DNA of 64,000 nt. It comes from Candidatus Saccharimonadota bacterium (lineage in GTDB: Bacteria > Patescibacteriota > Saccharimonadia > UBA4664). Numbering within the stretch: the stretch's first letter is position 1; every line of letters begins with the position of its first letter. The stretch covers positions 21,024-85,023 of the forward strand of contig JACAFG010000004.1 of the NCBI GenBank assembly GCA_019352195.1. Direction: 5' to 3'. Shown here piece by piece: positions 1,781 to 19,399 of the stretch. Under the pieces are notes generated by a model. That model searched no databases and was not told the DNA's origin. It saw only the letters and a program-made list of their open reading frames with translations. The position numbers and the translations under genes were made by a program.

Positions 1781-2011
1781 GATGTTATCTCGGCCTCCTT
1801 TCGTTCGTACATCATATCGGAGCATGAGCCTTTTCCACAACGCTGTTTTAATATCCTAATTATGGTGCGACTTATACACAGACGAAATTTCGCCCAACAG
1901 ATAAGAACGAAGTGCATAAGTTGTACCAAGGTGTGCAAAAACGGTGGGAAAGGTGTGACAAACTGTCCCGCTGTTGACTCTGCCGCTCAGATAGCGTAAT
2001 CTATCAAAGTT
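1781..2011. promoter_or_regulatory. Divergent dnaA/rpmH intergenic region, putative oriC segment with DnaA-box-like 9-mers.
   Basis: TTTTCCACA at 1831-1839 and TTATACACA at 1872-1880 each differ from the TTATCCACA consensus by one base; TGTGCAAAA and TGTGACAAA are weaker reverse-orientation matches; classic dnaA-rpmH divergent arrangement. Confidence 0.5.
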
Positions 2012-2149
2012 ATGTCGAAGCGAACTCACCAGCCAAAGAAGCGCAAACGCCAACGCGTCCATGGATTCATGGAACGTATGATGACGCGCGCTGGACGCAA
2101 CGTCCTCAAGCGCCGTATGCTCAAGGGCCGAAAACGCGTCGCAATCTAA
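2012..2149 (+). CDS. rpmH: 50S ribosomal protein L34. It is not in the ORF track because it is only 45 aa.
   Basis: Translation [45 protein letters not shown] matches the L34 signature; it lies immediately upstream of rnpA. Confidence 0.9.
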
Positions 2150-2190
2150 AATGAGCCGCCTCGCGCGGCTCATTTCGTTTAGAGGTCTGA

Positions 2191-2535
2191 ATGCTTAAAG
2201 CCAACAACCGACTCCGTCAGCGCCGCGATATCGACCGCGTTTATAAGCGCGGAACTTATGGTAGCGCCGCCGGTCTGCTAACAGTGAAAGCAGCCTCCGG
2301 TGCCAACCGTCCCAGCCGCGCGGTCGTGGTAGTGAGTAAAAAAATCGACAAGCGTGCGGTGGTCCGTAACCGTCTCCGCCGCCGCCTTTTGGGCTCATTG
2401 CTTGAGATTTGGGCGACAGTGCCAGATGGTTACGATATAGTAATAAGCGTCCATCGCGATTTCCGCGCCGCTCCATCGACCGAACTCACAGCGGCCCTCA
2501 CTACTGCGCTGCGTCATGCCCGCGTAATGTCATAA
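2191..2535 (+). CDS. rnpA: Ribonuclease P protein component.
   Basis: Basic 114-aa protein following rpmH; RnpA-like RNR motif region VVRNRLRRRL. Confidence 0.8.
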   Translation: MLKANNRLRQRRDIDRVYKRGTYGSAAGLLTVKAASGANRPSRAVVVVSKKIDKRAVVRNRLRRRLLGSLLEIWATVPDGYDIVISVHRDFRAAPSTELTAALTTALRHARVMS

Positions 2536-2550
2536 GTTTATTGGAGAATC

Positions 2551-3354
2551 ATGTTTAATACGCTCCTCGTTAAGCCGCTATTCAATCTGCTCGCAATTAT
2601 TTACGCTTATTTGCCAGGCCACGATTTTGGCGTTGCGATTATTATTCTTACCATCATCATTCGCCTCATTTTGTGGCCGGTGGTCACCAAGCAGCTCCAC
2701 TCGCAGCGCGCCATGCAGCAACTACAGCCAGAACTCGCTCGCATCAAGGCTGAGGCCAAAGGTGATCGTGCGCTCGAAAGTAAGCTCACCATGGAGCTCT
2801 ACAAAGAAAAAGAAATTAACCCCTTGGGTTCATTGCTGCCGCTCCTTATCCAACTACCTATCTTTATTGCGCTCTACGCTGTCTTACGGGACCTTGTTAA
2901 GCCAGGTGAGATTGAGCATTTGGCTTATCCTGCGGTCAAAAATCTTGCCCCAATCGCAGCCATCATCGCCAGTAATTCCCCATTTCACCCGCAGTTGTTT
3001 GGCGTTATAGATCTCGCTAAACCGTCGCCAATTTTGGCCGTGCTGGCAGGGGTGTTCCAGTTTATTCAGACTAAACAGCTTGCTCCCAAAAATGCCGTCA
3101 AGGATGCTTCTGCCCAAGTTACAGCTGCCATGACTTATGCCTTCCCGTTTGTTACCTTTATCCTCGGCCTCACCTTCCCAGCTGCTCTCACGCTTTACTG
3201 GACCACCTCAAGTGCCGTAGCGGTGCTGCAGCAGACTATTGTCTTGCGCCGCGACGCGCGCGAGCTCGCCGTTATCGAAGAGGCAATCGTGCTCGACGCC
3301 CCAACCCCGGCCAAGTTAAACTCGCCTAAGAAAAAGAAAGCCAAGAAAAAATAA
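2551..3354 (+). CDS. yidC: Membrane protein insertase YidC/Oxa1 family (short form).
   Basis: Multi-TM 267-aa protein after rnpA; lysine-rich C-terminal tail KKKKAKKK typical of short YidC. Confidence 0.8.
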   Translation: MFNTLLVKPLFNLLAIIYAYLPGHDFGVAIIILTIIIRLILWPVVTKQLHSQRAMQQLQPELARIKAEAKGDRALESKLTMELYKEKEINPLGSLLPLLIQLPIFIALYAVLRDLVKPGEIEHLAYPAVKNLAPIAAIIASNSPFHPQLFGVIDLAKPSPILAVLAGVFQFIQTKQLAPKNAVKDASAQVTAAMTYAFPFVTFILGLTFPAALTLYWTTSSAVAVLQQTIVLRRDARELAVIEEAIVLDAPTPAKLNSPKKKKAKKK

Positions 3355-3809
3355 TGGCAGATCTCAATGCCATTGCAGCCGCCAAGACGAGCGAACTCAT
3401 TTCGTTTTTTGGTATCAACGCCGACGCGAAGCCGGTTATTACTGAAGATGGCATAGTGCTCGATATCGACGCGCCGACCGCCTCAGCCCGCCTCATTGGC
3501 TACCACGGCGAAACGTTGCGCGCCCTCGAATACGTTATCAATCAAATTATGAAGCGCGTTGATGGCGACGCCCCTCGTTACCAGCTCGACGTGGCCGGTT
3601 ACCGTGAAGCACGTCGTCGTGGCCTCGAAGAACTCGCCCGCGATGCCGCCGCGCGGGTAGTTGAAACCGGTGCCAGCGAAGAGCTACGTCCTATGAATCC
3701 TGCCGAGCGTCGCATCGTCCATATGACCCTGCGCGAGTTGCCTGAAGTGGTAACCGAATCGGTGGGAGAGGATCGCTCGCGCCGTATCGTTATCAAACGC
3801 GCTACCTGA
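3354..3809 (+). CDS. khpB: Jag/KhpB-like RNA-binding protein with KH and R3H domains.
   Basis: ATG overlaps the yidC stop by 1 nt; conserved position in the rpmH-rnpA-yidC-jag cluster; R3H-like C-terminus. Confidence 0.75.
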   Translation: MADLNAIAAAKTSELISFFGINADAKPVITEDGIVLDIDAPTASARLIGYHGETLRALEYVINQIMKRVDGDAPRYQLDVAGYREARRRGLEELARDAAARVVETGASEELRPMNPAERRIVHMTLRELPEVVTESVGEDRSRRIVIKRAT

Positions 3810-3810
3810 A

Positions 3811-3845
3811 ACGGCCCTCCGGCCGTTCTTTGATTCGGTTTTTGT
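3811..3845. terminator. Hairpin ACGGCC-CTCC-GGCCGT followed by a T-rich tract, sitting between convergent jag and the GT4 gene.
   Basis: Inverted repeat read directly from the sequence at 3811-3826, followed by tctttgattcggttttt. Confidence 0.6.
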
Positions 3846-3861
3846 CCTAACAAAAGCTTGG

Positions 3862-4977
3862 TTAATCGCGCCGCAACGAGCGCAATGTAACCCGGTACAT
3901 GGCGAGTGTTTGCTCAGTCGTCGCTTTCCAGCTAAAACGCTTGAGCTGTTCGTATCCGGCCGCTACCAACCGAGCGCGCTCGACCTCATTTGCAGTTAAT
4001 ATGTCAATTTTATCCGTTAAATCTGTCGTTGAGTGCGGATCAAAATAGGCGGCGGCGTCTCCGTATACTTCTGGCAGACAAGTCGCGTTAGACGCCAGTA
4101 CTGGTGCGCCGTTCGACATCGCTTCAAGACCTGGCAAACCAAAACCTTCCGATAGCGACGGAAACACAAATAAGCTCGCTTGTTGATAGAGCCGGGTGAG
4201 CTCGTCATCACTGACTCGTCCTACAAACTTTACCCCCGCACCGAGCTTATTTTTGGCGACATATGCGCGCAGCTGTTCTCGGAAATAATCTTCGGGACCA
4301 CCCAAAATCAACTCACCACCGTGTGCCCTGAATTTGCTCACGGCAAACGCATCCACGAGCCGCGCTAGGTTTTTATAAGGGTACGAATTACCAAGCGAAA
4401 ACAAATAGGGTACTTCCGGTGATACTGGCTTAGTCGCGTCTTGCCCGGTCATCTCAAATCCCAATGGAATCGTCGTAAAACGCTCCGGCGGCAAATGAAA
4501 ATGACTCGCCAGGCGGTTTTTAACGTAGTTGGTGGAGCAAATAATGAGTTTAGACTTACGGACCGCATGACGGAGCGTCCAGCGTGAGGCGGCGTACTTC
4601 GCCTCGTATATCACATGCTTTAAACCGTCACCACGGTAGTTTTTAAAATCTACCAAGGTCATATCATGGACATTTGCCACGAAGGGCGCGTTATAAAACA
4701 CCGGCACGGTAAAGTGGGGGAAATGCACTAAATCCGGCTTGAGCGAACGTAAAATTCCCGGCAACCGCAGTTGTTCGGCCACGGTGTAGGGCGCAATATC
4801 AACCCACTCAATGCGAAAATTTGGCGCCACAGGTGCCCAGCGCTTGGCGTCTGCACGCTGCATAAGCACCACGTAGTCGTTGCTGTCATCCTGCTGCTCG
4901 AGGCGCAATAAGAGCTCTTTAGCGTAGCGGCCGATACCGGTCCAGCCAAGCACACGGCCGTCAAAAACAATTCTCAT
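3862..4977 (-). CDS. Glycosyltransferase, GT4 (GT-B) family.
   Basis: C-terminal EX7E-type motif region GFGLPGLEAMSNGAPVLAS. Confidence 0.8.
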   Translation of the reverse strand: MRIVFDGRVLGWTGIGRYAKELLLRLEQQDDSNDYVVLMQRADAKRWAPVAPNFRIEWVDIAPYTVAEQLRLPGILRSLKPDLVHFPHFTVPVFYNAPFVANVHDMTLVDFKNYRGDGLKHVIYEAKYAASRWTLRHAVRKSKLIICSTNYVKNRLASHFHLPPERFTTIPLGFEMTGQDATKPVSPEVPYLFSLGNSYPYKNLARLVDAFAVSKFRAHGGELILGGPEDYFREQLRAYVAKNKLGAGVKFVGRVSDDELTRLYQQASLFVFPSLSEGFGLPGLEAMSNGAPVLASNATCLPEVYGDAAAYFDPHSTTDLTDKIDILTANEVERARLVAAGYEQLKRFSWKATTEQTLAMYRVTLRSLRRD

Positions 4978-4991
4978 GTCACTTAGTATAA

Positions 4992-6038
4992 CTAAGATGC
5001 GCGTTTGAAGCGACGAAAGCGTAGCTGCTGTTGGGGTGGCAGCCCGTGATACAGCTGAGCTTCAATCATGTCGACCGTAACCTGGCGTCGGTGCTGGATA
5101 CGGTATCGACTCACTAAAATCCCGGGAAAATTCCAAACGGCGGTGGCATTGGCCTTAAAGTTAGCCGCAAACAGTCCCCGCTTAATGTCGCTCACCGCCA
5201 TCATGCCCCAGCTTGCCCAAAAGCGCGGTAAATACTTCCAATACAATGCCCCCGGCATGTTTTTGGTATACAGGTAGCTAAAATTCTTCACCGAGTGATA
5301 ACGGGCAAACGGGCTTGGCCCAGCCGCCGTCACAACCGCTGCCTCACCGTCGCCCGCTGCGTTGAGGCGCGCGCTCGTGCCGCCGATACGGTGGCGCACT
5401 ACTGACGCGGGCTCGTACTCGACTTTCCAACCAGCCAAACGCGCCCGAAAACTTATATCGGTGTCTTCGTAGTAAGCAAAAAAGCGCTGGTCAAATAAAC
5501 CTATTTCGCGCAGCATTGAGGCTCGGTACAAACTCGCACCGCCCGAGCCGGCAAAAACGTCACGCTGCTCGGCCGAATCAAATTGACCGGTATCAAGCTC
5601 GTCGCGTCCGCGCGGAAACGGAAACCCCCATGTTGAATACAGATCGCCGGTGGAGTCGAGTCGGGTATCTTCAAAGTGGCGAATTTTCGCCGCCGCAATG
5701 CCCACTTTGGGGTTGCCGGATAAAACCGCTACCAGCTTCTCCAGCCAGTCAGGGGCGGGAATAGCATCGTTATTGAGGAGCGCCGCTGCCTCTACTCTCA
5801 GCTTTAAGGCCGCTTCGAGGCCAGGATTTACTCCACCAGTGAAGCCGTAATTTTTATCACGGCAAATGAGGACAACCTGCGGATAATGTTCACGGATAAG
5901 TTCAACTGAACCATCGGTTGAGCCATTATCAACTACAATCACGCTCGCCGGCAGCGTTTGAGTCAGCGCGCTGTCGAGGCAGTCAGCCAACCAATCGAGG
6001 CCGTTCCAATTGGGAATAACAACTGCGTATTTATGCAT
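4992..6038 (-). CDS. Glycosyltransferase family 2. The start is probably the MHKYAVVIP Met at 6038; the listed ORF extends to 6152 and overlaps wzm.
   Basis: GT-A motif VVIPNWNG ... VIVVDNGSTDGS. Confidence 0.8.
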   Translation of the reverse strand: MHKYAVVIPNWNGLDWLADCLDSALTQTLPASVIVVDNGSTDGSVELIREHYPQVVLICRDKNYGFTGGVNPGLEAALKLRVEAAALLNNDAIPAPDWLEKLVAVLSGNPKVGIAAAKIRHFEDTRLDSTGDLYSTWGFPFPRGRDELDTGQFDSAEQRDVFAGSGGASLYRASMLREIGLFDQRFFAYYEDTDISFRARLAGWKVEYEPASVVRHRIGGTSARLNAAGDGEAAVVTAAGPSPFARYHSVKNFSYLYTKNMPGALYWKYLPRFWASWGMMAVSDIKRGLFAANFKANATAVWNFPGILVSRYRIQHRRQVTVDMIEAQLYHGLPPQQQLRFRRFKRAS

Positions 6039-6068
6039 ATGCCTAGGATAGCTTATAATTGAACGACT

Positions 6069-6881
6069 ATGCATCTCCAGAATATTCTTAGCCACCGTAA
6101 CCGCGCGCTCCTCCGAGAGCTCGTCGCCACCGATTTCAAGCTCAGATACCAAGGCTCGGCCCTCGGCTATCTGTGGTCGCTGTTTCGGCCACTATTCTTG
6201 TTTGCCATCCTTTATATCGTTTTTGGGTACTTTGCGAAGTTTGGCGGCAATATAGATCATTACCCGGTATATTTGCTGCTTGGTATTGTGCTATGGAACT
6301 TCTTTGTTGAAGCAACCAACTTTGGCTTAGGATCAATTGTGAATCGCGGCGACCTTATACGTAAAATCAATTTCCCCAAATATATTATCGTGGTTTCGGG
6401 TAGTATCTCAGCACTGATTAACTTATGTATTAGTTTGGTCGTGGTTCTGCTATTCGTATTACTCGCCGGTATTCATCTCAGGCCCGTGGTAATTTTGTTG
6501 CCGTTTCTTATCGTTGAGCTGTATATTTTTGCGTTGGCCGTCGCCTTCTTTTTATCCGCTCTCTACGTAAAATATCGTGACGTCAGCTACATCTGGGAGC
6601 TGGTTATGCAAGCGGGGATTTATGCCACTCCTATCATTATTCCAATCTCGCTTGTCTTAGCTCAGAGCCGGCTAGCGGCTAAAGTCATGCTCCTCAACCC
6701 TATCGCCCAGATCATCCAAGACGCCCGTTATGTTCTCGTAACTCCCAGCACTGACACGCTTTACAAACTCACCCATAATTGGCTGTCCGTTATTACGCCA
6801 CTAATCATCATCATCGTACTTGTCATTACGGCGGCCCTCTACTTCCGCGCGAACGCCAAATACTTTGCGGAGAATGTGTAA
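6069..6881 (+). CDS. wzm: ABC-2 type polysaccharide export permease (Wzm/TagG/KpsM-like).
   Basis: Six-TM ABC-2 permease with the typical N-terminus RELVATDFKLRYQGSALGYLW. Confidence 0.8.
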   Translation: MHLQNILSHRNRALLRELVATDFKLRYQGSALGYLWSLFRPLFLFAILYIVFGYFAKFGGNIDHYPVYLLLGIVLWNFFVEATNFGLGSIVNRGDLIRKINFPKYIIVVSGSISALINLCISLVVVLLFVLLAGIHLRPVVILLPFLIVELYIFALAVAFFLSALYVKYRDVSYIWELVMQAGIYATPIIIPISLVLAQSRLAAKVMLLNPIAQIIQDARYVLVTPSTDTLYKLTHNWLSVITPLIIIIVLVITAALYFRANAKYFAENV

Positions 6882-8113
6882 TGAACGATCAACCAGTAAT
6901 TCGAGTAAATAAGGTTTCAAAGAGTTTTCGATTGCCTCACGAAAAATACACTGGGCTTAAGCAGGCACTTATCAATTTCCGACCTGGCCGCGGTGAATCT
7001 GAGCAGCAAAAAGTGCTTAATAACATCAGTTTTAATATCAAAAAAGGCGAATTCTTTGGCATTGTTGGGCGTAACGGCAGCGGTAAGAGCACCATGCTTA
7101 AACTGCTTGCCCAAATTTATGTTCCTGACAACGGCGGCGTACACATCGACGGCAGCTTAACGCCATTTATTGAGCTTGGAGTTGGTTTCAACCCAGAGCT
7201 AACAGGTCGTGAAAACGTCTACCTTAACGGTGCTCTCCTGGGCTTTGACCGCAAGCAAACACAGGCCATGTATAACGATATTGTCAGCTTTGCAGAACTT
7301 GAGCCATTTATGGATCAAAAACTCAAAAACTACAGTTCAGGAATGCAGGTTCGCCTGGCCTTTTCGGTGGCCATCCGAGCTCAGAGTGATATTTTGCTCA
7401 TTGATGAAGTGTTGGCGGTGGGCGACGCATTGTTTCAGAAAAAATGTTACGAGTATTTCCGCGAGCTCAAACGTCAGGGCCGCACCGTTGTGTTTGTAAG
7501 CCATGATACCGGCGCTCTTGAAGAGTACTGCGACCGAGGAGCGCTCATCGAAAAAGGTGAACTTATACTTGAGGGCCCAATCACCGATGTAATCACTCGC
7601 TACACCAAAATTTTAAGCTCATCAGAAGTCCAAGAAGCTAACGAGCAGGGAATTAGTGATGATGGGCACTGGGGTTCTGGTTTGGCACGGATCGAGCGCG
7701 TTGGAATTACGACTCCTAGTGGAAAAAGCCAAAACGAGTACAAGGAAGACGAACCCATCAAAGTATCCGTCACTTTTTCTGCCGCCCAGGACATTCCTTC
7801 ACCAGTATGTGGTATCACGATTACCGACATCAAAAATGGCGTCATTTTTCAATCAAATACGCTTTGGGTCAAACAACCACTCCGAGATATGGCCGCGGGA
7901 GACAAGGTTGAACTAGAATGGACGTTGCCAAACTATTTCAATTCGGGTACTTTTTATGTCTCCCCCGCCGTATCGGATCGCTTTGGTATTGAAGTCTATG
8001 ACTGGGCAGAAGGTGCTGCGCAATTTATGGTTACCAAAAAACAAAAGAGCCATGCCGTCATTAACGTAAAACACCAACTAACCGCTCGGTATGAGGACAA
8101 TCAGCGTGGCTAA
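6881..8113 (+). CDS. wzt: ABC transporter ATP-binding protein (Wzt/TagH-like) with roughly 170 aa of extra C-terminal domain.
   Basis: Walker A GRNGSGKST, signature YSSGMQVRLAF, Walker B ILLIDEVLAVGD; ATG overlaps the wzm stop (TAATG); the extended C-terminal beta-rich domain is consistent with a Wzt carbohydrate-binding module. Confidence 0.85.
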   Translation: MNDQPVIRVNKVSKSFRLPHEKYTGLKQALINFRPGRGESEQQKVLNNISFNIKKGEFFGIVGRNGSGKSTMLKLLAQIYVPDNGGVHIDGSLTPFIELGVGFNPELTGRENVYLNGALLGFDRKQTQAMYNDIVSFAELEPFMDQKLKNYSSGMQVRLAFSVAIRAQSDILLIDEVLAVGDALFQKKCYEYFRELKRQGRTVVFVSHDTGALEEYCDRGALIEKGELILEGPITDVITRYTKILSSSEVQEANEQGISDDGHWGSGLARIERVGITTPSGKSQNEYKEDEPIKVSVTFSAAQDIPSPVCGITITDIKNGVIFQSNTLWVKQPLRDMAAGDKVELEWTLPNYFNSGTFYVSPAVSDRFGIEVYDWAEGAAQFMVTKKQKSHAVINVKHQLTARYEDNQRG

Positions 8114-9254
8114 CACCGATGATCTTCCGGCCCAATATGTTCGCCTATCAGCCCAACCGACCGTTCAAGCTGAGGCAGGGTACTGTACGTCCTGCGGTGC
8201 ATTCTCGAGCTTTCGATATGTCGAGATTATCAACGAGCAATTAGCAGCCCAGTGGGAGCTAAACCCGCTTCAACGGGAGCTCTTTAGCGCCCGTGAATCA
8301 CGCTATTGTTTGTTTTGCGGCTGTTCGACTCGTTTACGCAATCAGGCCGAAGCCATACGACTGGTTTTTGACACGAAGGATGAGTACCAGTCGCTCCAAG
8401 AAGCGGTAAGAGGCGGAGTGTTTGCCGATATTAAGGTTGCCGAAATTAATTCTTGTGGCGAGCTGCACCATGTTCTTGAGGAAATTGAGAATCTCAAATA
8501 TTCCGAGTATGTACCGGCTGATACGAGTATTGAGCATCAAGATTTGCTCGGTTTGAGCTATTCCAGCAATTCTTTTGATTTAGTGCTCACCTCCGATACC
8601 CTCGAACACGTACCAGACGCCACCAAGGCCTTCCAGGAGACCTTCCGCATCCTTAAGCCTGGCGGGTACCACATTTTCACCACACCTATCGTGTGGGATC
8701 GCCAGACACGCGCTCGCGTAACTATGGGGAACGGTGAACCGGATCATTTGTTGGCTGATTCATTTCATGGTTCGGGCGAAGACGATTACTTGGTTTGGTC
8801 GGAGTTTGGCGCCGACATCATTACAAACCTCAAGGAAGTTGGCTTTTCACCACAAGTTTTCTTTTTAAACGCCACAAATATTGATGATCCTTCGGCTGTA
8901 ATTGTTGCTCGTAAGGGGGTCTTCACCAAGCCGCTAAATCATCAGCTGGTTGATGGACTCTTTACTGACAAAATTAAGACCGGCTCCAAGTTTGCGTCAG
9001 CCAGTCTCTATCAAAAGAGTTATCAGTTTGATCCCGAATTCCAAGGCCTTAAACTGTCAGCTCTTAGCACTAAACTGCAGCTCACGCTCAATCATGTTGC
9101 CAATCTCGAACATCTTGTAGAAGAACCAAAGCAGAAAATCAACCGGCTTGAAGCCGAGCTTGACGGCATTTACCGCTCCCGTCGATGGAAAATTACCGAG
9201 CCAATGGCGCAGTTTAACGCCTTTTTCCGGCGCTTTCGCAGTCCTCGCGACTAG
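8091..9254 (+). CDS. Class I SAM-dependent methyltransferase with an N-terminal zinc ribbon and a C-terminal coiled-coil segment.
   Basis: Zinc ribbon CxxC...CxxC (CTSCGAF ... CLFCGCS); methyltransferase core LVLTSDTLEHV ... ILKPGGY; a helical segment NRLEAELDGIY near the C-terminus. Confidence 0.65.
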   Translation: MRTISVANTDDLPAQYVRLSAQPTVQAEAGYCTSCGAFSSFRYVEIINEQLAAQWELNPLQRELFSARESRYCLFCGCSTRLRNQAEAIRLVFDTKDEYQSLQEAVRGGVFADIKVAEINSCGELHHVLEEIENLKYSEYVPADTSIEHQDLLGLSYSSNSFDLVLTSDTLEHVPDATKAFQETFRILKPGGYHIFTTPIVWDRQTRARVTMGNGEPDHLLADSFHGSGEDDYLVWSEFGADIITNLKEVGFSPQVFFLNATNIDDPSAVIVARKGVFTKPLNHQLVDGLFTDKIKTGSKFASASLYQKSYQFDPEFQGLKLSALSTKLQLTLNHVANLEHLVEEPKQKINRLEAELDGIYRSRRWKITEPMAQFNAFFRRFRSPRD

Positions 9255-10588
9255 TCGAACTTCAAGTATTGTTCGAGCTGCTCATCGACGCCTTTGAGCG
9301 TATGAGCGAGGGTTTTATCCCAGTTGTCGGCAATAGTCGTGGTTGCTAGGTTTTTCATCCGCGTCTCATACGACATACTAGCGGCCTTCTTTATTCCAGC
9401 AGTAATAGCCTCAACCGATAAGTCGGTGATAACAATATTATCCGAATAGTTTGATAAGTCATGTTTAGTGACGTATTTAGTGGTAACAACGGCCGAGCCA
9501 ATCGAGGCAAACTCGAGCGTGGGGTAGTTGGGGTGCGGCGCCATCATAGGTGTCAGCGCCACATCAATGGTTTTTGAAAAAGTGATGTATTCATCCATAC
9601 CCATTTTACCGAGGTTCTTAATGATGGCGCCACTCGAAAGCTTAATATTGGGCAGATTGTTTTGTCCGGCCATCCAAATTTCCCATTCGCTAGCTACCAA
9701 ACCACCGTCACTAAAAGCCCGGTTGAGGGCATCGAGGCTGAGGTGGAACAAATTTCGTTCCACATTTGGTCGGCCATACAAGAACAATTGTTTTTTCTTG
9801 CCGGTATTATCGACGGCTTTGCCACTTGCGAGTCTTGATACGGCCGGCTCAAACCAGAGACCGTTATCTTTAATATAGTCATAACCTTGGTGGGTCATAA
9901 ATTTATACATCAGTTCAGTGTTACAGACTGGGATAAATCGATTCGTCCGATAGGTATTCTCAGCCAAGACTGCCATATCACCGTTGGCGTAAAAGATGGG
10001 TTCAAAATCCTGAATCAGGTATATGAACTTGTGAGTTAAAGGTAGCTGCTCAATCAGTTGCGCGTCCCACCAGGCTGAGACGATAAAAATATCGTCTGGC
10101 CGCATATCGAGGTAACCATAAATATTATAGCGGCGAGCTGAAATATCGATAAGCTCGACACTAGCTGCGTCGATAGCTATACCATTGGCAGTAAAAAATT
10201 GCTCGAGACCGCGGCCATCACCAGTCTCGCTGGTTTGAATAATGCGCAATGGCATATGATGGCGCTCCGCCAGTTTGGCAGCAAAAATGAGCGCCGTAGC
10301 TACTCCACCGTAAAAACCACGGCTTGTGAGGCTCGGTACCACCAAAGCCACTTTTGCTGGACGGCCAATCGCTGGTAACGAGGGATTTAGTGGCACAATG
10401 AGAGGAATTGAACTGTAGATTTTTTCTTCAAACGTCATTTCACTGCGTGCGCGCACACTATAATCGGTGCCAAGTAAAATACGCAGCGACTTATCTTCAA
10501 TCCGGGCAAACAATACCGCCATTTTGTAGGTAATTTTGTGACCAATATTAGCTAGTTTGCGAATAACTCGCAGTGCAAACTGCATCAT
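9251..10588 (-). CDS. Glycosyltransferase (WsaF-like / GT-B rhamnosyltransferase-like).
   Basis: 445-aa soluble GT-B-like protein; its position is in the glycan locus; the family assignment is tentative. Confidence 0.5.
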   Translation of the reverse strand: MMQFALRVIRKLANIGHKITYKMAVLFARIEDKSLRILLGTDYSVRARSEMTFEEKIYSSIPLIVPLNPSLPAIGRPAKVALVVPSLTSRGFYGGVATALIFAAKLAERHHMPLRIIQTSETGDGRGLEQFFTANGIAIDAASVELIDISARRYNIYGYLDMRPDDIFIVSAWWDAQLIEQLPLTHKFIYLIQDFEPIFYANGDMAVLAENTYRTNRFIPVCNTELMYKFMTHQGYDYIKDNGLWFEPAVSRLASGKAVDNTGKKKQLFLYGRPNVERNLFHLSLDALNRAFSDGGLVASEWEIWMAGQNNLPNIKLSSGAIIKNLGKMGMDEYITFSKTIDVALTPMMAPHPNYPTLEFASIGSAVVTTKYVTKHDLSNYSDNIVITDLSVEAITAGIKKAASMSYETRMKNLATTTIADNWDKTLAHTLKGVDEQLEQYLKFD

Positions 10589-11442
10589 CGAAAATCCTCT
10601 TGGTTAGTAATAGCGGGTAAGTAGCGGTCACCAACTTCAATATCGAAACCCTGCATATATGACCGGTAGGACCAATAAAAATCGTTATAGGGGATTGGTA
10701 TAAAAGCGCGCGACTGACTTTCTTTGTGCAGCAAGAACCCGCCCCCAACAAACCAAGTTTGCATACCGGTGTGATTGAGGCGGATACAAAGATCAACGTC
10801 ACCGCCACAAATAATAAACCGAGTATCCATACCACCTACACCGACATACTTGGCTTTTTCTACTACCTGCACAGCGCCTGTAACGGCCGTCATCGCCAGA
10901 TCGGTGGTAATGTCATATGGGAAGATAGACACATCGCGATCCGCTGCAATTGACTGACTATAGCGTCTGCCGGCATACAAATGTTCTGCCTGACCTTTGG
11001 GGCGCAAGAATACTCCCCCGTGCTGAATCGTATTGCCGTCGCCATAGAGTAAAGTACACCCCACGATGCCAACTTTCGGATCAGCCGCCTTGGCAACCAT
11101 GCGCTCGATCAGTCCCGCCGACTCTGGCCTCAACTCGGTGTCATTATTTAGGAGAAGCAGAAATTGGCCGGTCGCCTGCTCTACGCCAAAATTCATCAGT
11201 TTTTGATAATTGAAGGGGTGGTTATACTCAAAGATCTTAATAAATGGGCGACTTACTGTAGCAAGCTTAATTGCCTCTAGCTCATCAGGCGACGAATTAT
11301 TACTAAGTAAAATAATTTCACGCAAACGTGGACCAAACTTCAGGAGCGAATCGACCGCAAGCATGGTCAGTTTCGCCTTGTTATGGAATGGGATTACCAC
11401 CGATAGATCGAGCTTGTCGGAAGAAGAAGTCGCCTCACTCAT
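10585..11442 (-). CDS. Glycosyltransferase family 2.
   Basis: SVVIPFHNKAKL ... GT-A fold motifs; 4-nt overlap with the downstream gene. Confidence 0.8.
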   Translation of the reverse strand: MSEATSSSDKLDLSVVIPFHNKAKLTMLAVDSLLKFGPRLREIILLSNNSSPDELEAIKLATVSRPFIKIFEYNHPFNYQKLMNFGVEQATGQFLLLLNNDTELRPESAGLIERMVAKAADPKVGIVGCTLLYGDGNTIQHGGVFLRPKGQAEHLYAGRRYSQSIAADRDVSIFPYDITTDLAMTAVTGAVQVVEKAKYVGVGGMDTRFIICGGDVDLCIRLNHTGMQTWFVGGGFLLHKESQSRAFIPIPYNDFYWSYRSYMQGFDIEVGDRYLPAITNQEDFR

Positions 11443-11483
11443 AAGGAGTATTATAGCAAACCGAGAGCATATGGCCTAAGTAG

Positions 11484-12770
11484 TTACTGCGCGTTGGTGT
11501 ACCAGGCGACACCGTCCATAAGATAGCCACAGCTTGCAATCGCAGAGTTGACCTCGGCCTGGCTAGTCGTGAAGAGGTGGTCGCTATTATGGGCGTTACG
11601 AAGTCGGTATACCGGCATCAAGCCTGCTGCGGGATTGGGTTCGGCCACAAAGGCCGGTCCTTCAATGCGGTACCCATATTGGCGCACGGCGTTATTGGCC
11701 TCATCTTGGCTAATGGTGTAAAAGTGCATGCCATTTGGTGCTACCAGGCGCATAACGGGTGCTGTTGTACCACTGGGGGCATCGACAAAAGCAATACCTT
11801 CTTTGCGGAAGCCATTATTAACCGTGTACATCCATTCGGCGTAGCTTGATGTATAAAAGTGCTCGCCGGTCCTCGGGTTTGCCGATCGGAAAATGGTACC
11901 GGTCGGATAGGCTGATGTCGAACCTGCCCCAAAGAACGTTTCAAAAATACCGGGGAAACTCTGTCCTAAGTGCGGCGTGTATTGGTAGAGCGACGCGGTT
12001 GACCCATTTTCGAGATAGATCGACTGTCCGTCAATTGTAGCGTAGCCATTGTAGTAATTTAGGGCACAGCTACCGCAGCGGGCAAATGTGCCTTGAGTCA
12101 TATATCCGCCGTAGGTGAGCGCATCATCGCCGTCATAGGCCGTGTTACCGATACTGCGTTCCTTATTAAATTTGAACTGCCAACCAGCCCACAATACTTG
12201 TTTACTAAAACCAGCGTAGCGCTCGTGATTCACGCACGTGCCGGTAATACCAATAGTTGGATAATCGTGCAAGGTTAGCGTATCGGGACAATCATAACCA
12301 AGAGCAGCTGCATATCGTCCCGGTGTACAGCTGGTGCCAGTAACAAGGCTTTCTTCTTTTTGTAGTGTCGCCAGAATAACCTGCGGGTTAAGCCCCCATT
12401 GGTTGGCAGAGCGAAAAATGGCAGCCGAGGCGCTGATAGTACTCGGGCCGTAGCTTGAACTCCACGCCGCCGTCGCGTATAGCGGATCAGACGGGTCAGT
12501 AATATCACCATAATGCCAATGCGAACCGTCCCAGTAAAAGTTAGGTGTTTGATAGCTAGCTAGACACGTTGAGGCTGCACTAAGACGATGATCGCTACCG
12601 TCCAAAAACGATTGAATCTGTGCCTGAGTCATTGAGCCAACATTATCGAACACGGCATCATCAATGAGGTGCGAATCGGTGTATGCCAAAGCGGCCTGCG
12701 GCGCTACCATCAGCAGTGACCCGAGCGTAAGCGCGAGTGAGCTTATAAGGGCTGGGATAAAGCGTTTCAT
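11484..12770 (-). CDS. Secreted protein with three C-terminal repeats of about 45 aa (HFYT-S-E...GY-EG-AF), possibly a cell-wall-associated hydrolase.
   Basis: Signal peptide MKRFIPALISSLALTLGSLLMVAPQAALA; the three tandem repeats are read directly from the translation. Confidence 0.45.
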   Translation of the reverse strand: MKRFIPALISSLALTLGSLLMVAPQAALAYTDSHLIDDAVFDNVGSMTQAQIQSFLDGSDHRLSAASTCLASYQTPNFYWDGSHWHYGDITDPSDPLYATAAWSSSYGPSTISASAAIFRSANQWGLNPQVILATLQKEESLVTGTSCTPGRYAAALGYDCPDTLTLHDYPTIGITGTCVNHERYAGFSKQVLWAGWQFKFNKERSIGNTAYDGDDALTYGGYMTQGTFARCGSCALNYYNGYATIDGQSIYLENGSTASLYQYTPHLGQSFPGIFETFFGAGSTSAYPTGTIFRSANPRTGEHFYTSSYAEWMYTVNNGFRKEGIAFVDAPSGTTAPVMRLVAPNGMHFYTISQDEANNAVRQYGYRIEGPAFVAEPNPAAGLMPVYRLRNAHNSDHLFTTSQAEVNSAIASCGYLMDGVAWYTNAQ

Positions 12771-13387
12771 TTGCGGATCTCCAATGTGTAGGGGGCCGAG
12801 TAGCCGACCTTATTACCAATTCTTGCTACTAAACGGACTTGCCAATCACCAACAGCGAGCTTAGCCGCAGCGTTCCAATCGAGCTCGACAAAGTAGTTGT
12901 CAGACGAAACGAGGCTTGGACCTGCCACCGTAATCGGGTTATTAATATCGGTATAGGCCTGCACTTCACAGGTAGCTCCTGGTAGCGAGTAGCAGGTCGA
13001 TACCATTTCGGGACTAAATTGTGGCTGGGTACTGCTGAGCGAAATATATTCACTTGGTTGGGCATTCTTGTCACCCTTATTTAGCACTTGGCCAGTGGGG
13101 GCAGCTAACGGTAGTGGGGCAGGTGTAGCCGTTGGATTGGCCACCGGAGCCGTCGTAGGCGTGGGCGTTGAGGTGCCAGTTTGAGAGGTACCGGCGGCAC
13201 CAGGGCCAACTGTTGGGGTTGGGCTCGCGCTGGGTTGGGGCGTTGATAGGGTTAATTTGGAACGATTCGAGGATATTAAGGCGACACTGACAATTATTAC
13301 GACCAGTAAAAGCGCGACCATAAGTGGCAGCCATCTGGGTAAATTTTTCTTTTTTAGCTTAACCATCATTACCTGTAAGCATACCAT
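12767..13387 (-). CDS. Membrane-anchored protein with a Pro/Thr-rich linker.
   Basis: N-terminal TM helix, a PT-rich spacer, a small C-terminal beta domain; ATGA overlap with the upstream gene. Confidence 0.5.
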   Translation of the reverse strand: MVCLQVMMVKLKKKNLPRWLPLMVALLLVVIIVSVALISSNRSKLTLSTPQPSASPTPTVGPGAAGTSQTGTSTPTPTTAPVANPTATPAPLPLAAPTGQVLNKGDKNAQPSEYISLSSTQPQFSPEMVSTCYSLPGATCEVQAYTDINNPITVAGPSLVSSDNYFVELDWNAAAKLAVGDWQVRLVARIGNKVGYSAPYTLEIRK

Positions 13388-13413
13388 AATTCTACCTGGT
13401 AACGAGGCGTTTG

Positions 13414-15384
13414 CTACGGAGTGGGTGCTGAGATTACGTGGTATAAGGTGAGCGTCTGGTTCGGGTAACTAACGGAGTCTGATGGCACCAAACATGGCGA
13501 GTTTATGGCTTCGGCGCTCAAAATGTAATCCAAATGCTGGGCGATGTATGGATCGCAACCGGCCAGCTCGACCGCAAAATGGTCGCCGCCCAGCAAACTA
13601 AAACCACGCTTCGGTCCAATCACTAAAGTAATGTGGGCAAATCGGTTATAAACTTTCTGACTTGCCGCAGAATCACTGATCGGCTTCCAAAGTGATAGTT
13701 GCGGATACTCTTCGACGCCCGTAATTGTCTGACGCCCGGCTAACAGTGGGAAATTTTCGAACACCACCGAATTATTAACCGCAATTCGACTGGTAGCAGG
13801 CGTTGACTCCAACATCTTGATGACTGCGGAGTCTGTCAGCACTGCGAGGCCGCGATAGAGGGGCATCACCCCATTTGCCGAGTAGATCGATATGCCCGCC
13901 AAAATAAACACACCCAGCACAGCCGTGCGGCGCCATACGATGAAGGCAGCGGATACTGCAACTACACTCGCCAGTAACACAATGAGCCAAATTTCAGGCA
14001 TATAACCGGGATAGTGCCGGTGAAAACGCTCACCAACAAGCAAGGTTACGGCCAAGGCAGAACCGCCTGCCAACAACATTACTAAGGGTGACCGAGTTGG
14101 TTTAAAAGCGATCAGGTGGCGGTATATGAGCACGAGTTGCATGAAGCCAAGCACACCAAGGCCAATCAAAATACGTTCGGGCGGAACATATTGCAACAGC
14201 AATAAACGGTAGGGCAAATTGGGCCATGGCAAAACCATTCGAGCGACCAACACTACATACATGGCATTAACACCCAAGAGCATCCAGTCGATATGATGAT
14301 GTTTACGCCAAGCTGTAACAATAAAATACAGTGACGGCAATACAAGATATGGTGCCACCAAAATAAAGTTCGAAGCCTCGCTTTGGTTGTGGGGCAAACT
14401 TATTGCCCGTAACGGGTTGGTTAGCTGGGACGACATGAAATTACCAAACAGCAGGACTAAATTATAGCCGCCGCTGGTGACGAGGCGTTTGCCGGGATAG
14501 ACGGTATGGGTAATGGCAGCAACGGCATCTGGACGAGTTTTTATGAACACAAGAGCAATAATACCGGCCATCAAACCGGCACCGGTAATATAGATGAAAT
14601 TTAGCCAAAACTGCCTCTGATCAGCTTCAGTATATGTTTCGATACCATATCCAATTAGCAGCACCGCCATTGCCAGCGCGCACGGGATTTGGAAGGGGGG
14701 ATACATAATAAGTGCAAATGCCGCCGCCAAATATACCAGTAAAACACTGAGTGATATTCGCACCCAAGTATGTCTCGTTCGCCACAGCCGCATGATAACG
14801 ATACTCATGGTAAGAACGTACACAATAGGCGCAATCGTAATAGTCTGATACCACCAAAAGATAAACGGATTTATCGATACGACCAATGCCGCACCGATGG
14901 CGTAGAGGCGGTGTTTTGGCACAAGTTCAAGCGCAAAGAAATAGGCTGAGATGAGTAAAGCTGCCAGCAGCAGCCACCACTTAAAAGCAAAAGCATACTC
15001 AACCGGCATCACAAAGAAGGCTAAGTTTTGTGGTTTGAACGCCACACTCCACTCGCGGTAAGGCACGTCGGCAACTATCGACATATCTTGGCCGTTACCA
15101 ACATCAACGTTTGTTCGTGGCCAGCCGGCTTTTTGTTGCGCCAAAATGAGCTGCGTGTTTACCAGCCATTCATCAGAGCGAACGGGGCGAATCGTGCCGC
15201 TCACCAAGTTAGTATCCGCACCAGTTTGAGCGGTAACATAGCGATAATAGCCCACCGAGCTACCCGACAGTCGTAGCACGGTCAAAATAATTAGTCCCGC
15301 CACCACAACGGCAGGAAATAGCCACACCGACTGAATCACTCGTCGCCACCACGGCACCGGCGATGAATGTATTTGCTTCACCAT
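13414..15384 (-). CDS. Large polytopic membrane protein, putative GT-C fold glycosyltransferase (YfhO/GtrC-like) using a polyprenol-P-sugar donor.
   Basis: 656 aa, more than 10 predicted TM helices, an extracytoplasmic loop after TM1 and a C-terminal soluble domain; the gene context includes a polyprenol-P GT2 and a small 4-TM flippase-like protein. Confidence 0.5.
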   Translation of the reverse strand: MVKQIHSSPVPWWRRVIQSVWLFPAVVVAGLIILTVLRLSGSSVGYYRYVTAQTGADTNLVSGTIRPVRSDEWLVNTQLILAQQKAGWPRTNVDVGNGQDMSIVADVPYREWSVAFKPQNLAFFVMPVEYAFAFKWWLLLAALLISAYFFALELVPKHRLYAIGAALVVSINPFIFWWYQTITIAPIVYVLTMSIVIMRLWRTRHTWVRISLSVLLVYLAAAFALIMYPPFQIPCALAMAVLLIGYGIETYTEADQRQFWLNFIYITGAGLMAGIIALVFIKTRPDAVAAITHTVYPGKRLVTSGGYNLVLLFGNFMSSQLTNPLRAISLPHNQSEASNFILVAPYLVLPSLYFIVTAWRKHHHIDWMLLGVNAMYVVLVARMVLPWPNLPYRLLLLQYVPPERILIGLGVLGFMQLVLIYRHLIAFKPTRSPLVMLLAGGSALAVTLLVGERFHRHYPGYMPEIWLIVLLASVVAVSAAFIVWRRTAVLGVFILAGISIYSANGVMPLYRGLAVLTDSAVIKMLESTPATSRIAVNNSVVFENFPLLAGRQTITGVEEYPQLSLWKPISDSAASQKVYNRFAHITLVIGPKRGFSLLGGDHFAVELAGCDPYIAQHLDYILSAEAINSPCLVPSDSVSYPNQTLTLYHVISAPTP

Positions 15385-15468
15385 TGTTGTCTATAGTATG
15401 CCAACAGTGAGCGGTTTGCCCAGTGCCCAATTGTTCTTTTAGGGAGTTTCAATTAGGCTTAAGTCCTA

Positions 15469-15834
15469 ATGCTATATATTATCGGTATCCTCGTCGCCTT
15501 TTTGCTCGTCTGCGGCCAAGCGTTATGGAAAGTGGGCGTCCAGCACGCGCATTTAGAGCTTACGGCCGGTTACTTGTTCTCAAAGCAGGTCTTTAGTCTG
15601 ATTTTTTCGCCCTACATTATTGGCGGAGCGGTTATTTATGCCTTTGCCACGCTTATGTACCTGGGGCTACTGGCAAAATATCAGTACTCGACAGTTCAAG
15701 GTCTGGTGGTGCCCGTCTCACTCATTTCGGCCTTTTTGCTCGCGCGCGTAGTCTTCAACGAGCGCCTCAGCGTCGTGAATTATGTTGGCCTCGGTGTCTT
15801 GGTGGTCGGAATTTTGCTGGCCACGCGCCGCTAA
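15469..15834 (+). CDS. Small 4-TM DMT/EamA-like protein (ArnE/ArnF or GtrA-type lipid-linked sugar flippase candidate).
   Basis: 121 aa, four hydrophobic helices; C-terminal ERLSVVNYVGLGVLVVGILLA resembles SMR/EamA helices. Confidence 0.55.
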   Translation: MLYIIGILVAFLLVCGQALWKVGVQHAHLELTAGYLFSKQVFSLIFSPYIIGGAVIYAFATLMYLGLLAKYQYSTVQGLVVPVSLISAFLLARVVFNERLSVVNYVGLGVLVVGILLATRR

Positions 15835-16884: not shown

Positions 16885-16916
16885 AGTAATACCATCATAT
16901 ACGATTATTATTGAAC

Positions 16917-18371: not shown

Positions 18372-18373
18372 CG

Positions 18374-19399
<1,026 letters not shown>

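Follow-up and report, generated by a model that had tools for sequence, protein, structure and literature searches.

A zinc-ribbon methyltransferase as a candidate glycan-capping terminator beside a Wzm/Wzt exporter in Saccharibacteria

For LPS O-antigens, ABC export that depends on a cap and a coiled-coil terminator is a well-established mechanism, and a Gram-positive S-layer glycan is the one further case for which it has been proposed. In the characterised systems, a Wzt that bears a carbohydrate-binding domain (CBD) requires a terminal cap (PMC9445017). The terminator WbdD of Escherichia coli O8/O9a (equivalent to Klebsiella pneumoniae O5/O3) has an extended coiled coil, while K. pneumoniae O7 ORF6 and O12 WbbB are fusions in the order terminator, coiled coil and polymerase glycosyltransferase (GT) (PMC11231755). 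On the S-layer side, the wzm-wzt-wsaE-wsaF cluster of Geobacillus stearothermophilus NRS 2004/3a, wherein wsaE encodes the methyltransferase, yields a poly-L-rhamnan S-layer glycan with a 2-O-methyl cap (PMC2943079). The locus considered here lies in a window of 64 kb, i.e., the whole stretch of DNA that was analysed, on a contig from Candidatus Saccharibacteria (CPR), and presents wzm, wzt and a methyltransferase as three consecutive genes whose neighbouring ends overlap (Table 1). This conserved operon most likely serves a known strategy, in which a surface glycan is methyl-capped and only capped chains are exported, here with an uncharacterised zinc-ribbon methyltransferase and in bacteria devoid of LPS. 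Saccharibacteria are monoderm and without LPS; hence, the O-antigen paradigm invoked in an earlier sequence-only reading of this DNA needs correction as to the product, which is not an O-antigen, and the glycan differs in this respect from the O-antigens of both E. coli O8/O9a and Aquifex aeolicus.

Table 1. Coordinates of the features of the locus and of its neighbours within the window.
Feature	Coordinates	Strand	Evidence or remark
wzm, ABC-2 permease, 270 aa	6069-6881	+	PF01061 ABC2_membrane, residues 15-222, E 2.8e-13
wzt nucleotide-binding domain, residues 1-244	6881-7612	+	PF00005, residues 46-177, E 4.6e-21
wzt C-terminal carbohydrate-binding domain, residues 245-410, and stop	7613-8113	+	PF14524 Wzt_C
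Methyltransferase N-terminal region with predicted Cys4 (zinc-ribbon/treble-clef-like) subdomain	8091-8423	+	Conserved Cys
Class I SAM-methyltransferase core, residues ~112-275, atypical motif I AEINSCGELH	8424-8915	+	
Methyltransferase variable linker, residues 276-314	8916-9032	+	Drop in pLDDT; varying length and sequence
Methyltransferase tail, coiled-coil-like helix 315-382, and stop	9033-9254	+	AlphaFold2; heptad test
WsaF-like glycosyltransferase; candidate rhamnosyltransferase and polymerase component	9251-10588	-	WsaF_N E 3e-21; WsaF_C E 5e-40
GT4	3862-4977	-	Pfam; divergent from wzm; syntenic in relatives
GT2	4992-6152	-	Pfam; divergent from wzm; syntenic in relatives
GT2, downstream of the WsaF-like gene	10585-11442	-	PF00535 E 1.1e-14; syntenic in relatives
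RmlA, dTDP-6-deoxyhexose precursor gene	16917-17798	-	TIGR01207, 475 bits (cutoff 361)
RmlB, dTDP-6-deoxyhexose precursor gene	18374-19369	-	TIGR01181, 459 bits (cutoff 365)

In an ABC-transporter-dependent pathway for a cell-surface glycan, which probably contains rhamnose or another 6-deoxyhexose, the three genes may be seen as the core that terminates and exports the chain. The chain would be built on a polyprenyl carrier in the cytoplasm, with the GT4, the GT2, the WsaF homologue and the second GT2 as candidate enzymes; the zinc-ribbon methyltransferase would O-methylate the sugar at the non-reducing end and thereby stop elongation, and the C-terminal jelly-roll of Wzt would bind the methylated terminus and license export through Wzm/Wzt. 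The tail helix of the methyltransferase may oligomerise and/or keep the enzyme at the membrane beside the polymerising enzymes, and it would thus set the cap at a certain membrane distance or stoichiometry, thereby biasing chain length. As a whole explanation, methyl capping with cap-licensed export and a tail-biased chain length can be given a probability of about 0.6. Inference gives good support to a coupling between capping and export, and the effect of the tail on chain length, which is the least secure step, falls somewhat short of even odds.

That a Wzm/Wzt exporter is encoded here was borne out by the matches to PF01061, PF00005 and PF14524. Wzm homologues in the syntenic loci have 266–282 aa; the NCBI call for this gene, with 180 aa, is N-terminally truncated. 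The wzt gene starts at ATG 6881, within the TAATG that closes wzm, rather than at TTG 6779 of the mechanical ORF, and its product (6881-8113, 410 aa) aligns over residues 16–389 with the full-length A. aeolicus Wzt (8dku, E 2.5e-65). Its nucleotide-binding domain matches those of Wzt proteins (6amx/6m96, E 1e-58) and TarH/TagH (E 1e-51 to 1e-54); Wzt is thus an ABC ATPase of the Wzt/TagH clade with an adjacent Wzm permease. As this domain ends near residue 245, Wzt has about 165 further C-terminal residues, close to the roughly 170 first estimated. The proposed comparison of this extension with known carbohydrate-binding modules identified it as a Wzt CBD by both Pfam and Foldseek. PF14524 matches residues 263–394 (E 2.2e-23, 83 bits versus a cutoff of 30.4) and is carried by all 120 of the best Wzt homologues, and the AlphaFold2 model of the domain is a beta-sandwich (pLDDT 89.9) for which the 17 best Foldseek matches in the PDB are without exception Wzt CBDs (TM 0.67–0.80), including 8dky (0.80, E 3.8e-10), 2r5o (0.72) and 5hno (0.70). 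It can hence be described as a jelly-roll/beta-sandwich CBD homologous to the known ones, with a fold shared with the CBD-bearing Wzt of E. coli O8/O9a (2r5o).

The A. aeolicus WzmWzt system, with a CBD for a 3-O-methyl cap, provides both the best full-length sequence match (8dku) and the best structural match to the CBD (8dky), the latter being bound to 3-O-methyl-mannose. In a pairwise alignment at about 20% identity, the methyl-pocket residues L300, T346, A348 and W362 of the Aquifex protein correspond to T313, S361, A363 and W375. Among the 83 Saccharibacteria homologues, W375, the counterpart of the lid Trp W362, is conserved in 74, A363 in 74 and T313 in 77. The two domains differ in their trap loops, the one here being shorter by two residues and varying between homologues, and the CBD alone matches Aquifex by sequence with an E of only about 0.5. 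The aligned and conserved lid Trp is indirect evidence for a CBD that would recognise a methyl-capped terminus and be needed for export.

The methyltransferase ORF spans 8091-9254 (387 aa), while NCBI places the start at GTG 8106 (382 aa), with GAGGA 8 nt upstream, which is likely the true start; with either start, the gene overlaps the wzt stop at 8111-8113. The protein (AlphaFold2 model, pLDDT 92.5) is wholly accounted for by a Cys4 subdomain, a methyltransferase core, a linker and a helix. The N-terminal Cys4 of the sequence-only reading stood up as a family-wide feature, its zinc-ribbon nature being a prediction: Cys32-x2-Cys35 and Cys73-x2-Cys76 are invariant in a set of 21 homologues, and across 114 homologues Cys76 is invariant with Cys32, Cys35 and Cys73 each at least 90% conserved, alongside W55, R68 and E69, which are invariant or nearly so. 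In the model, this region has a pLDDT of 92–98, a beta-hairpin (29–42) holds the first CxxC, and the second (73–76) stands ahead of a helix (80–93). No Pfam family covers the region, and the subdomain is predicted to bind zinc.

The core has the seven-stranded Rossmann-like fold of class I SAM-dependent methyltransferases, and the protein belongs to a large unnamed family. When each species was represented by one genome, 599 pattern matches were listed, and at least 494 of them, from many phyla, are relatives. Pfam profiles match only the motif II–III half (residues 145–196). Motif I reads AEINSCGxLH in place of E/DxGxGxG; E118 and N120 do not vary, conservation of G123 is at least 90%, and the post-I SE (S138, E139) is conserved in the family; SAM binding is an assumption here because this motif lacks the usual glycines. 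The degenerate glycine-rich loop also raises the option of an inactive scaffold, which may be grouped with a second one, namely that the enzyme acts at the precursor level by methylating nucleotide sugars or small molecules. Some nucleotide-sugar C-methyltransferases do have N-terminal Cys4 domains, and the closest solved structures include RebM, AtmM and sarcosine/dimethylglycine methyltransferases, i.e., small-molecule and natural-product sugar enzymes. Nevertheless, the small-molecule families of Pfam and NCBIfam all score below cutoff, and the positions of motif I, post-I and motif II are conserved in 114 sequences that span many phyla, as would be expected of an active site under constraint. 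A soluble precursor enzyme would likewise hardly need a coiled-coil tail directed to the membrane, or fusion to polymerase GTs, and both options appear highly improbable. Membership in a non-glycan small-molecule family had been named at the outset as part of what would speak against a role in glycan capping; the family is instead found in glycan contexts. This, together with the Wzt CBD and the overlap of the methyltransferase gene with wzt, supports the terminal-modification part of that earlier reading, and it can be inferred that the methyl group is transferred to the terminal sugar.

In gene order, the closest parallel is the S-layer rhamnan cluster of Geobacillus, which serves a Gram-positive-type envelope as well and in which wzm, wzt and the methyltransferase gene have overlapping ends and are followed by a WsaF-type rhamnosyltransferase (PMC2943079), with rml genes further along. 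The WsaF-like neighbour matches G. stearothermophilus WsaF (2x0d) over residues 35–397 with E 1.4e-46. The two differ in that here the WsaF-like gene runs opposite to wzm, wzt and the methyltransferase gene and that WsaE is a methyltransferase fused to two rhamnosyltransferase domains, as opposed to a standalone one with a coiled-coil tail. The ORFs tested yielded no rmlC or rmlD and no initiating transferase, ligase or LCP enzyme, and no WsaB/WaaL-like transferase is encoded within the window. Among relatives, a Wzy_C gene is present in L082 and L085.

The arrangement recurs in seven other Saccharibacteria loci (L001–L003, L082–L085), where wzm, a wzt with Wzt_C and a methyltransferase of about 40% identity stand together, and in all eight loci examined the methyltransferase gene overlaps the CBD-bearing wzt. 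The order GT4-GT2-wzm-wzt-methyltransferase-WsaF-GT2 is kept in each of the four relatives with annotated neighbourhoods (L082–L085), and in L001 the WsaF domains were confirmed directly 3' of the methyltransferase. Furthermore, of the best 120 Wzt homologues, 31 lie on a contig equal in length to that of one of the best methyltransferase homologues. Across phyla the picture is looser: wzm-wzt adjoins the gene in only about seven of the best 80 family loci, and in two Wzt-linked ones (L013 and L025) Wzt is without a CBD, so that the family is not obligatorily tied to CBD-dependent export. These observations leave room for a methyltransferase that merely decorates the chain by O-methylating internal residues or an adaptor sugar, with the CBD recognising another cap, a terminal sugar added by a GT, or the backbone. 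Across phyla the family is indeed found mostly beside GTs and other methyltransferases, with Wzt not adjacent, and many relatives have two methyltransferases, which could mean multiple methylations. Set against this are the consistent overlap with the CBD-bearing wzt in Saccharibacteria, the binding of a methyl cap by the CBD's closest structural counterpart with conservation of the lid Trp, and the coiled-coil tail and placement N-terminal to polymerase GTs, which are the reported hallmark of terminators as opposed to decorating enzymes (PMC11231755). Decoration thus seems quite unlikely as the role of the enzyme.

The tail that would make the enzyme a capping terminator follows a linker (pLDDT 72–76) in which homologues differ in length and sequence. 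AlphaFold2 predicts a single continuous helix of about 68 residues (pLDDT 94–97) bearing an LTxxHxxNLE motif, a IYRSRRWKITEP junction motif and a basic aromatic C-terminus. Its a/d heptad hydrophobic pattern is stronger than in shuffles of the same composition (p = 0.008), and of 44 homologous tails 36 pass this test at p < 0.05. A proline, P346, occupies a core position. A profile of the tail finds coiled coils in the PDB and only 78 proteins among 1.84 billion; of ten scanned from outside the family, nine have an N-terminal methyltransferase (seven), sulfotransferase or GT4 with the tail match at the C-terminus. In all eight Saccharibacteria loci, the tail HMM has a match, either on the zinc-ribbon methyltransferase (ZnMT) or on a downstream second methyltransferase (MT2): in L085 and L003, which have a short ZnMT, the second enzyme carries it instead, and in the fused ZnMT-MT2 proteins P0037 and P0077 it stands at the end. 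The coiled coil anticipated in the earlier reading is therefore upheld by the heptad test and the HMM as a coiled-coil-like, conserved and portable element. The helix is predicted to oligomerise.

A parallel might be struck with WbdD, which likewise has N-terminal catalytic domain(s), a coiled coil and a basic amphipathic C-terminus; the candidate terminator here runs from catalytic domain to helix to basic C-terminus, its polymerase GTs are separate proteins as in E. coli O8/O9a, and its cap is predicted to be of the same methyl type. The likeness to WbdD drawn in the earlier reading has to be recast as analogy rather than homology: no sequence relation is detectable, and the top structural matches do not include WbdD. 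No kinase family of Pfam or NCBIfam (as in the O9a type) is found in the protein, which further differs from WbdD by its additional Cys4 subdomain and its atypical motif I. The coiled coil of WbdD is much longer than the helix of about 68 residues seen here. Relatives from three other phyla (L013, L008 and L026), with Pirellulales and two delta-proteobacterial MAGs (L008, L026) among them, are fusions in the order ZnMT-MT2-coiled coil-GT2(-GT4), and that of L013 sits directly 3' of wzm-wzt. These share the layout of the K. pneumoniae O7 and O12 terminators, and a CgnL-like generic methyltransferase fold, also shared with those systems, is among the structural matches. The present locus differs from them in having its modules as separate genes, in its catalytic families and in having no kinase or Kdo-transferase module. 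In terms of function, it would belong with the systems in which a modifying enzyme held membrane-distal on a coiled coil is encoded in the wzm/wzt cluster (PMC11231755).

The ruler role of the tail is no more than plausible, and it is the weakest part of the reading, since the helix is short. Tail lengths range over 45–74 residues across homologues in a continuous spread without clean heptad steps, and the last 20 residues have a median net charge of +6. Capping might thus proceed without a ruler, with the CBD reading the cap, the tail serving only as a membrane tether or oligomerisation element, and length arising from the terminator-to-polymerase ratio or from kinetics. This is what a short helix (45–74 residues across homologues), the lack of heptad quantisation and a basic end as the most consistent feature of the tail would suggest. 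On the other hand, the coiled coil was the ruler in every characterised coiled-coil terminator tested (PMC11231755), and in the fused relatives it physically parts the methyltransferases from the GT modules. Capping without a ruler seems rather unlikely.

If capping with cap-licensed export holds, the cap-and-export logic would also be at work in the episymbiotic Saccharibacteria of the CPR, for whose own surface glycans a full-text literature search found no paper. It would leave the paradigm unchanged while widening its taxonomic and enzymatic range, and it would allow a large unnamed family of Cys4 methyltransferases to be given a function. It would also predict a conserved envelope polymer with a possible bearing on host attachment, phage recognition or immune detection. 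More tentatively, and as a doubtful extension, the Cys4 methyltransferase, of a family so far undescribed, and a coiled-coil/basic tail of 45–75 residues may form a minimal portable terminator cassette, in Saccharibacteria and some other phyla, that would decide how long a methyl-capped rhamnose-type surface glycan grows and whether it can be exported. Such a glycan would be an envelope polymer conserved across Saccharimonadia and might then help to determine how the epibiont meets its host or phages. With its small size and natural variation in length, the tail would offer a compact test system for molecular rulers outside LPS biology. In this putative cassette, the ZnMT or a second methyltransferase can carry the tail, or the tail can lie between these enzymes and the polymerase GT modules.

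The genes wzm, wzt and that of the methyltransferase are co-directional with overlapping ends, as both the ORF listing and the reading of the junctions show: the ATG of wzt sits inside the TAATG that closes wzm, and since the wzt stop lies at 8111-8113, the methyltransferase start overlaps wzt with either of its candidate starts, i.e., that of the table or the GTG at 8106 (382 aa), which is the NCBI start and has a GAGGA 8 nt upstream. Together with the Pfam domains, these junctions bear out the gene sequence described in the sequence-only reading, which had seen in it a terminal-modification system after the model of WbdD, the chain-terminating methyltransferase of E. coli O8/O9a. The analysis establishes folds and domains, fusions, synteny and conservation. 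In the best-supported reading, for which we infer catalysis, cap specificity and length control, glycosyltransferases would build up, on a lipid carrier, a chain containing 6-deoxyhexose, and the Cys4 methyltransferase would methylate its non-reducing end and thereby stop chain growth. The coiled-coil and basic tail would place the enzyme at the membrane next to the polymerase, or oligomerise it there, and the carbohydrate-binding domain (CBD) of Wzt would read the methyl cap and license export.

Coordinates of the exporter genes, the surrounding glycan cluster and the fusion proteins of relatives (the latter in the coordinates of their own loci)
Feature	Coordinates	Strand	Description
wzm	6069-6881	+	270 aa, Pfam ABC2_membrane
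wzt	6881-8113	+	410 aa, Pfam ABC_tran + Wzt_C
methyltransferase	8091-9254	+	387 aa, Pfam: only C-terminal half of generic methyltransferase profiles
GT4 + GT2	in cluster		divergent from wzm
WsaF homologue	in cluster		E 1.4e-46 to Geobacillus beta-1,2-rhamnosyltransferase 2x0d
further GT2	in cluster		with WsaF homologue
DUF5648	in cluster
DUF7657+DUF7654 protein	13414-15384	-	656 aa, no NCBIfam name
DUF2304 protein	15831-16187	-	small membrane protein
PpgS-like GT2	16180-16884	-	polyprenyl-phosphate GT2
RmlA + RmlB	within 16917-19369		both pass NCBIfam equivalog cutoffs
Acyl_transf_3 protein	in cluster
L013 fusion	1228-5916		Pirellulales MAG; ZnMT-MT2-coiled coil-GT2(-GT4)
L008 fusion	7893-11516		delta-proteobacterial MAG; ZnMT-MT2-coiled coil-GT2(-GT4)
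L026 fusion	2190-6164		delta-proteobacterial MAG; ZnMT-MT2-coiled coil-GT2(-GT4)

The C-terminal extension of Wzt, previously suspected to be a carbohydrate-binding module, is indeed one of the Wzt type. Pfam places ABC_tran at residues 46-177 and Wzt_C at residues 263-394 (E 2.2e-23), and residues 16-389 align with the full-length Aquifex aeolicus Wzt 8dku (E 2.5e-65). From 83 sequences, AlphaFold2 models residues 245-410 as a beta-sandwich (pLDDT 89.9), and the 17 top PDB matches of this model in Foldseek are without exception Wzt CBDs. The model matches 8dky, the Aquifex CBD with 3-O-methyl-mannose, at E 3.8e-10 and TM 0.80, the E. coli O9a Wzt-C 2r5o at TM 0.72 and the Kdo-cap-binding O12 CBD 5hno at TM 0.70, with unrelated Ig-like folds appearing below the Wzt CBDs at E >= 1e-5. 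A homologue search with the CBD alone as query returned nothing; the full-length query gave homologues, and PF14524 is present in all 120 of the best. The methyl pocket of the Aquifex domain is formed by L300, T346, A348 and W362, and changing W362 to Leu abolishes binding (PMC9445017). In a HMMER alignment these residues pair with T313, S361, A363 and W375 of the window Wzt, a correspondence that is only suggestive since a sequence comparison of the CBD by itself reaches only E about 0.5 against Aquifex. Of 83 Saccharibacteria-type Wzt proteins, 74 conserve W375, 74 A363 and 77 T313, and the CBD is far less conserved than the nucleotide-binding domain (mean pairwise identity 0.41 versus 0.69).

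The methyltransferase belongs to an uncharacterised family of which 637 homologues were found. When one genome per species was scanned, at least 494 of the 599 pattern matches listed proved to be relatives; these relatives come from Saccharibacteria, Armatimonadota, Verrucomicrobiota, Planctomycetota, Bacteroidota, Proteobacteria, Actinomycetota (including Mycobacterium) and Chloroflexota. The cysteines C32, C35, C73 and C76 are invariant across 21 homologues; across 114, C76 remains invariant and the other three are each at least 90% conserved, with W55, R68 and E69 falling between the two CxxC pairs in the alignments. In place of E/DxGxGxG, motif I has AEINSCGxLH, the post-I position is S138-E139 and motif II is TSDTLEHVPD; the Pfam match is to Methyltransf_11 over residues 145-196, and no NCBIfam model reaches its cutoff. 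In the AlphaFold2 model (pLDDT 92.5, pTM 0.88), the first CxxC belongs to a beta-hairpin (29-42) and the second immediately precedes a helix (80-93), after which come a Rossmann-type core, a lower-confidence linker (276-314) and a single unbroken helix (315-382). The nearest solved structures in Foldseek are generic class I methyltransferases such as RebM (E 3e-8) and AtmM. WbdD is not in the listed Foldseek matches, nor in any sequence search with the methyltransferase, and the proposed likeness to the WbdD family therefore holds as analogy and not as homology.

The coiled coil anticipated for the C-terminus is supported by this predicted helix and its heptad pattern, which exceeds composition-preserving shuffles at p = 0.008, with L322, L325, L329, T332, V336, L339, V343, P346, I350, L353, L357 and I360 at the core positions. 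Tails of 77-132 residues past the core are found in 42 of the 114 closest homologues, and 36 of 44 tails exceed such shuffles in their a/d hydrophobic pattern (median p 0.006). They begin with a conserved Q..(K/R)(I/V)..L..K..LTxxHxxN(L/I)E, continue with a variable helical stretch and close with a basic end (median net charge +6 in the last 20 residues). A profile of 25 tails gives weak PDB matches that are mostly coiled coils, i.e., designed coiled-coil peptides, SMC, keratin and tropomyosin. Gaps in the MAFFT alignment hinted at steps of 7, 14 and 21 residues in tail length, a quantisation rejected upon anchor-based measurement, which gives a continuous spread of 38-67 residues. A role as a ruler setting chain length would be the weakest step of the mechanism, given the short helix and the proline at a core position.

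This tail behaves as a compact, portable module. A tail HMM detects it in 8/8 Saccharibacteria loci examined, on one or the other methyltransferase: in loci L085 and L003, a short Cys4 methyltransferase (about 271-275 aa) is followed by a canonical second methyltransferase bearing a homologous tail that reads …LTQQHINNL…SRIWKAAQKIREIAKR, and in the proteins P0037 and P0077 the two enzymes and the tail are fused in a single chain. Only 78 of 1.84 billion representative proteins match the tail profile at E <= 0.001, and in nine of the ten non-family proteins scanned a recognisable enzyme domain precedes the C-terminal match (seven methyltransferases, one sulfotransferase and one GT4). P0247 (545 aa), retrieved together with methyltransferase-plus-coiled-coil proteins, has a sulfotransferase-family domain and then a C-terminal region of which five stretches match the profile; a chain terminator that adds sulfate is a possible role for it. 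Many relatives have a Cys4-type and then a canonical GxGxG-type methyltransferase in tandem, split or fused (L085 7001-8754; L003 7932-9700; P0037; P0077), with the tail invariably on the last one, which hints at a doubly modified cap, e.g., di-O-methyl, in those lineages.

Larger fusions of 1208-1563 aa, with a member of the methyltransferase family at the N-terminus, occur in three MAGs (table). They share their terminator-coiled coil-polymerase layout with K. pneumoniae O7 ORF6 and O12 WbbB, whose coiled coil is described as a molecular ruler and as a hallmark (PMC11231755). The motif that closes the coiled coils of the fusions, IYGSHGWK and AVYASYSWRITRPL, is also present in the window tail as IYRSRRWKITEP. 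The L013 fusion lies directly 3' of wzm-wzt, and its Wzt, like that of locus L025, is without a CBD; a third methyltransferase-like stretch is seen near residue 1430 of the fusion.

The order GT4-GT2-wzm-wzt(Wzt_C)-methyltransferase-WsaF-GT2 is retained in four Saccharibacteria loci, L082-L085, at a methyltransferase identity of about 40%. It ends with DUF7657 in L082-L084, which keep the DUF7657+DUF7654 protein; the last gene of L085 runs off the locus and has no Pfam match. The wzm-wzt-methyltransferase core is retained in L001-L003, with WsaF domains confirmed downstream in L001 and the second methyltransferase in that place in L003. Among the 120 best Wzt homologues, 31 are on contigs equal in size to one bearing a best methyltransferase homologue. 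Outside the phylum the linkage is patchy: the 80 best loci include only about 7 with wzm-wzt next to the gene, and universal linkage is rejected. Other recurrent assignable neighbours are glycan-related (GT2, GT4, more methyltransferases, GDP-mannose-dehydratase-type enzymes and PMT_2), PKS/NRPS families are not among the neighbour families listed, and GcpE, also frequent as a neighbour (7 loci), is taken to be clade-specific.

A Candidatus Saccharibacteria MAG (GCA_017884045.1, 117-kb contig) encodes a protein with 100% identity to the window methyltransferase, and dnaA, dnaN, rnpA and yidC adjoin the locus. Saccharibacteria are monoderm and are not known to make LPS; hence, the glycan cannot be an O-antigen. 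The cluster around the three genes spans ~3862-20647. No rmlC, rmlD, initiating phosphoglycosyltransferase, LCP enzyme or WaaL/Wzy_C ligase was found in 30 further window ORFs; given the missing RmlC and RmlD, the deoxysugar may not be L-rhamnose or the genes may lie outside the window. A Wzy_C gene (WaaL/WsaB-like ligase or O-oligosaccharyltransferase) between GT4 and GT2 in L082 (3673-4989) and L085 (2688-3995) is missing from the window cluster, such that the glycan acceptor may differ or the ligase of this organism may be encoded elsewhere. The PpgS-like GT2, DUF2304 and DUF7657/DUF7654 proteins (13414-16884) resemble a three-component extracytoplasmic glycan decoration system.

The closest precedent in gene order is the S-layer glycan cluster of Geobacillus stearothermophilus, in which wzm, wzt and wsaE overlap and are followed by wsaF, and rhamnose receives its 2-O-methyl cap from the methyltransferase at the N-terminus of WsaE (PMC2943079). 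Cap-and-export is already known in kind; what is new is the tail module, the catalytic family of the terminator, marked by a Cys4 subdomain and an atypical motif I, and the host lineage, for whose own glycans no literature was found. No paper found treats Saccharibacteria and Wzt together, the search on S-layers and glycosylation gave nothing relevant, and a Saccharibacteria paper with many mentions of rhamnose concerns the rhamnose polysaccharide of the host and not of the epibiont.

The public wzm call in GCA_017884045.1 (locus L081, 8234-8776) has 180 aa versus 270 aa from the ATG at 6069, and is N-terminally truncated in light of the 270-aa ORF, a Pfam match from residue 15 and syntenic homologues of 266-282 aa. 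At full length, wzm runs into the 5' end of the divergent GT2 gene (4992-6152) as extended to a TTG, and hardly any intergenic room is left for divergent promoters. At the other end, the methyltransferase (+) and WsaF-like (-) genes converge with overlapping stops (9251-9254), and there is thus no intergenic space for a terminator; a promoter and terminator scan of 5700-9600 is uninformative because its counts match the shuffle expectation. The stretch from wzm to the WsaF-like gene, with wzt and the methyltransferase between them (window 6000-12000), has a G+C content of 0.46-0.49, with flanks of 0.53-0.54 upstream (2-6 kb) and of about 0.49-0.51 downstream; according to reviews, O-antigen and S-layer glycan clusters show the same dip in their central parts.
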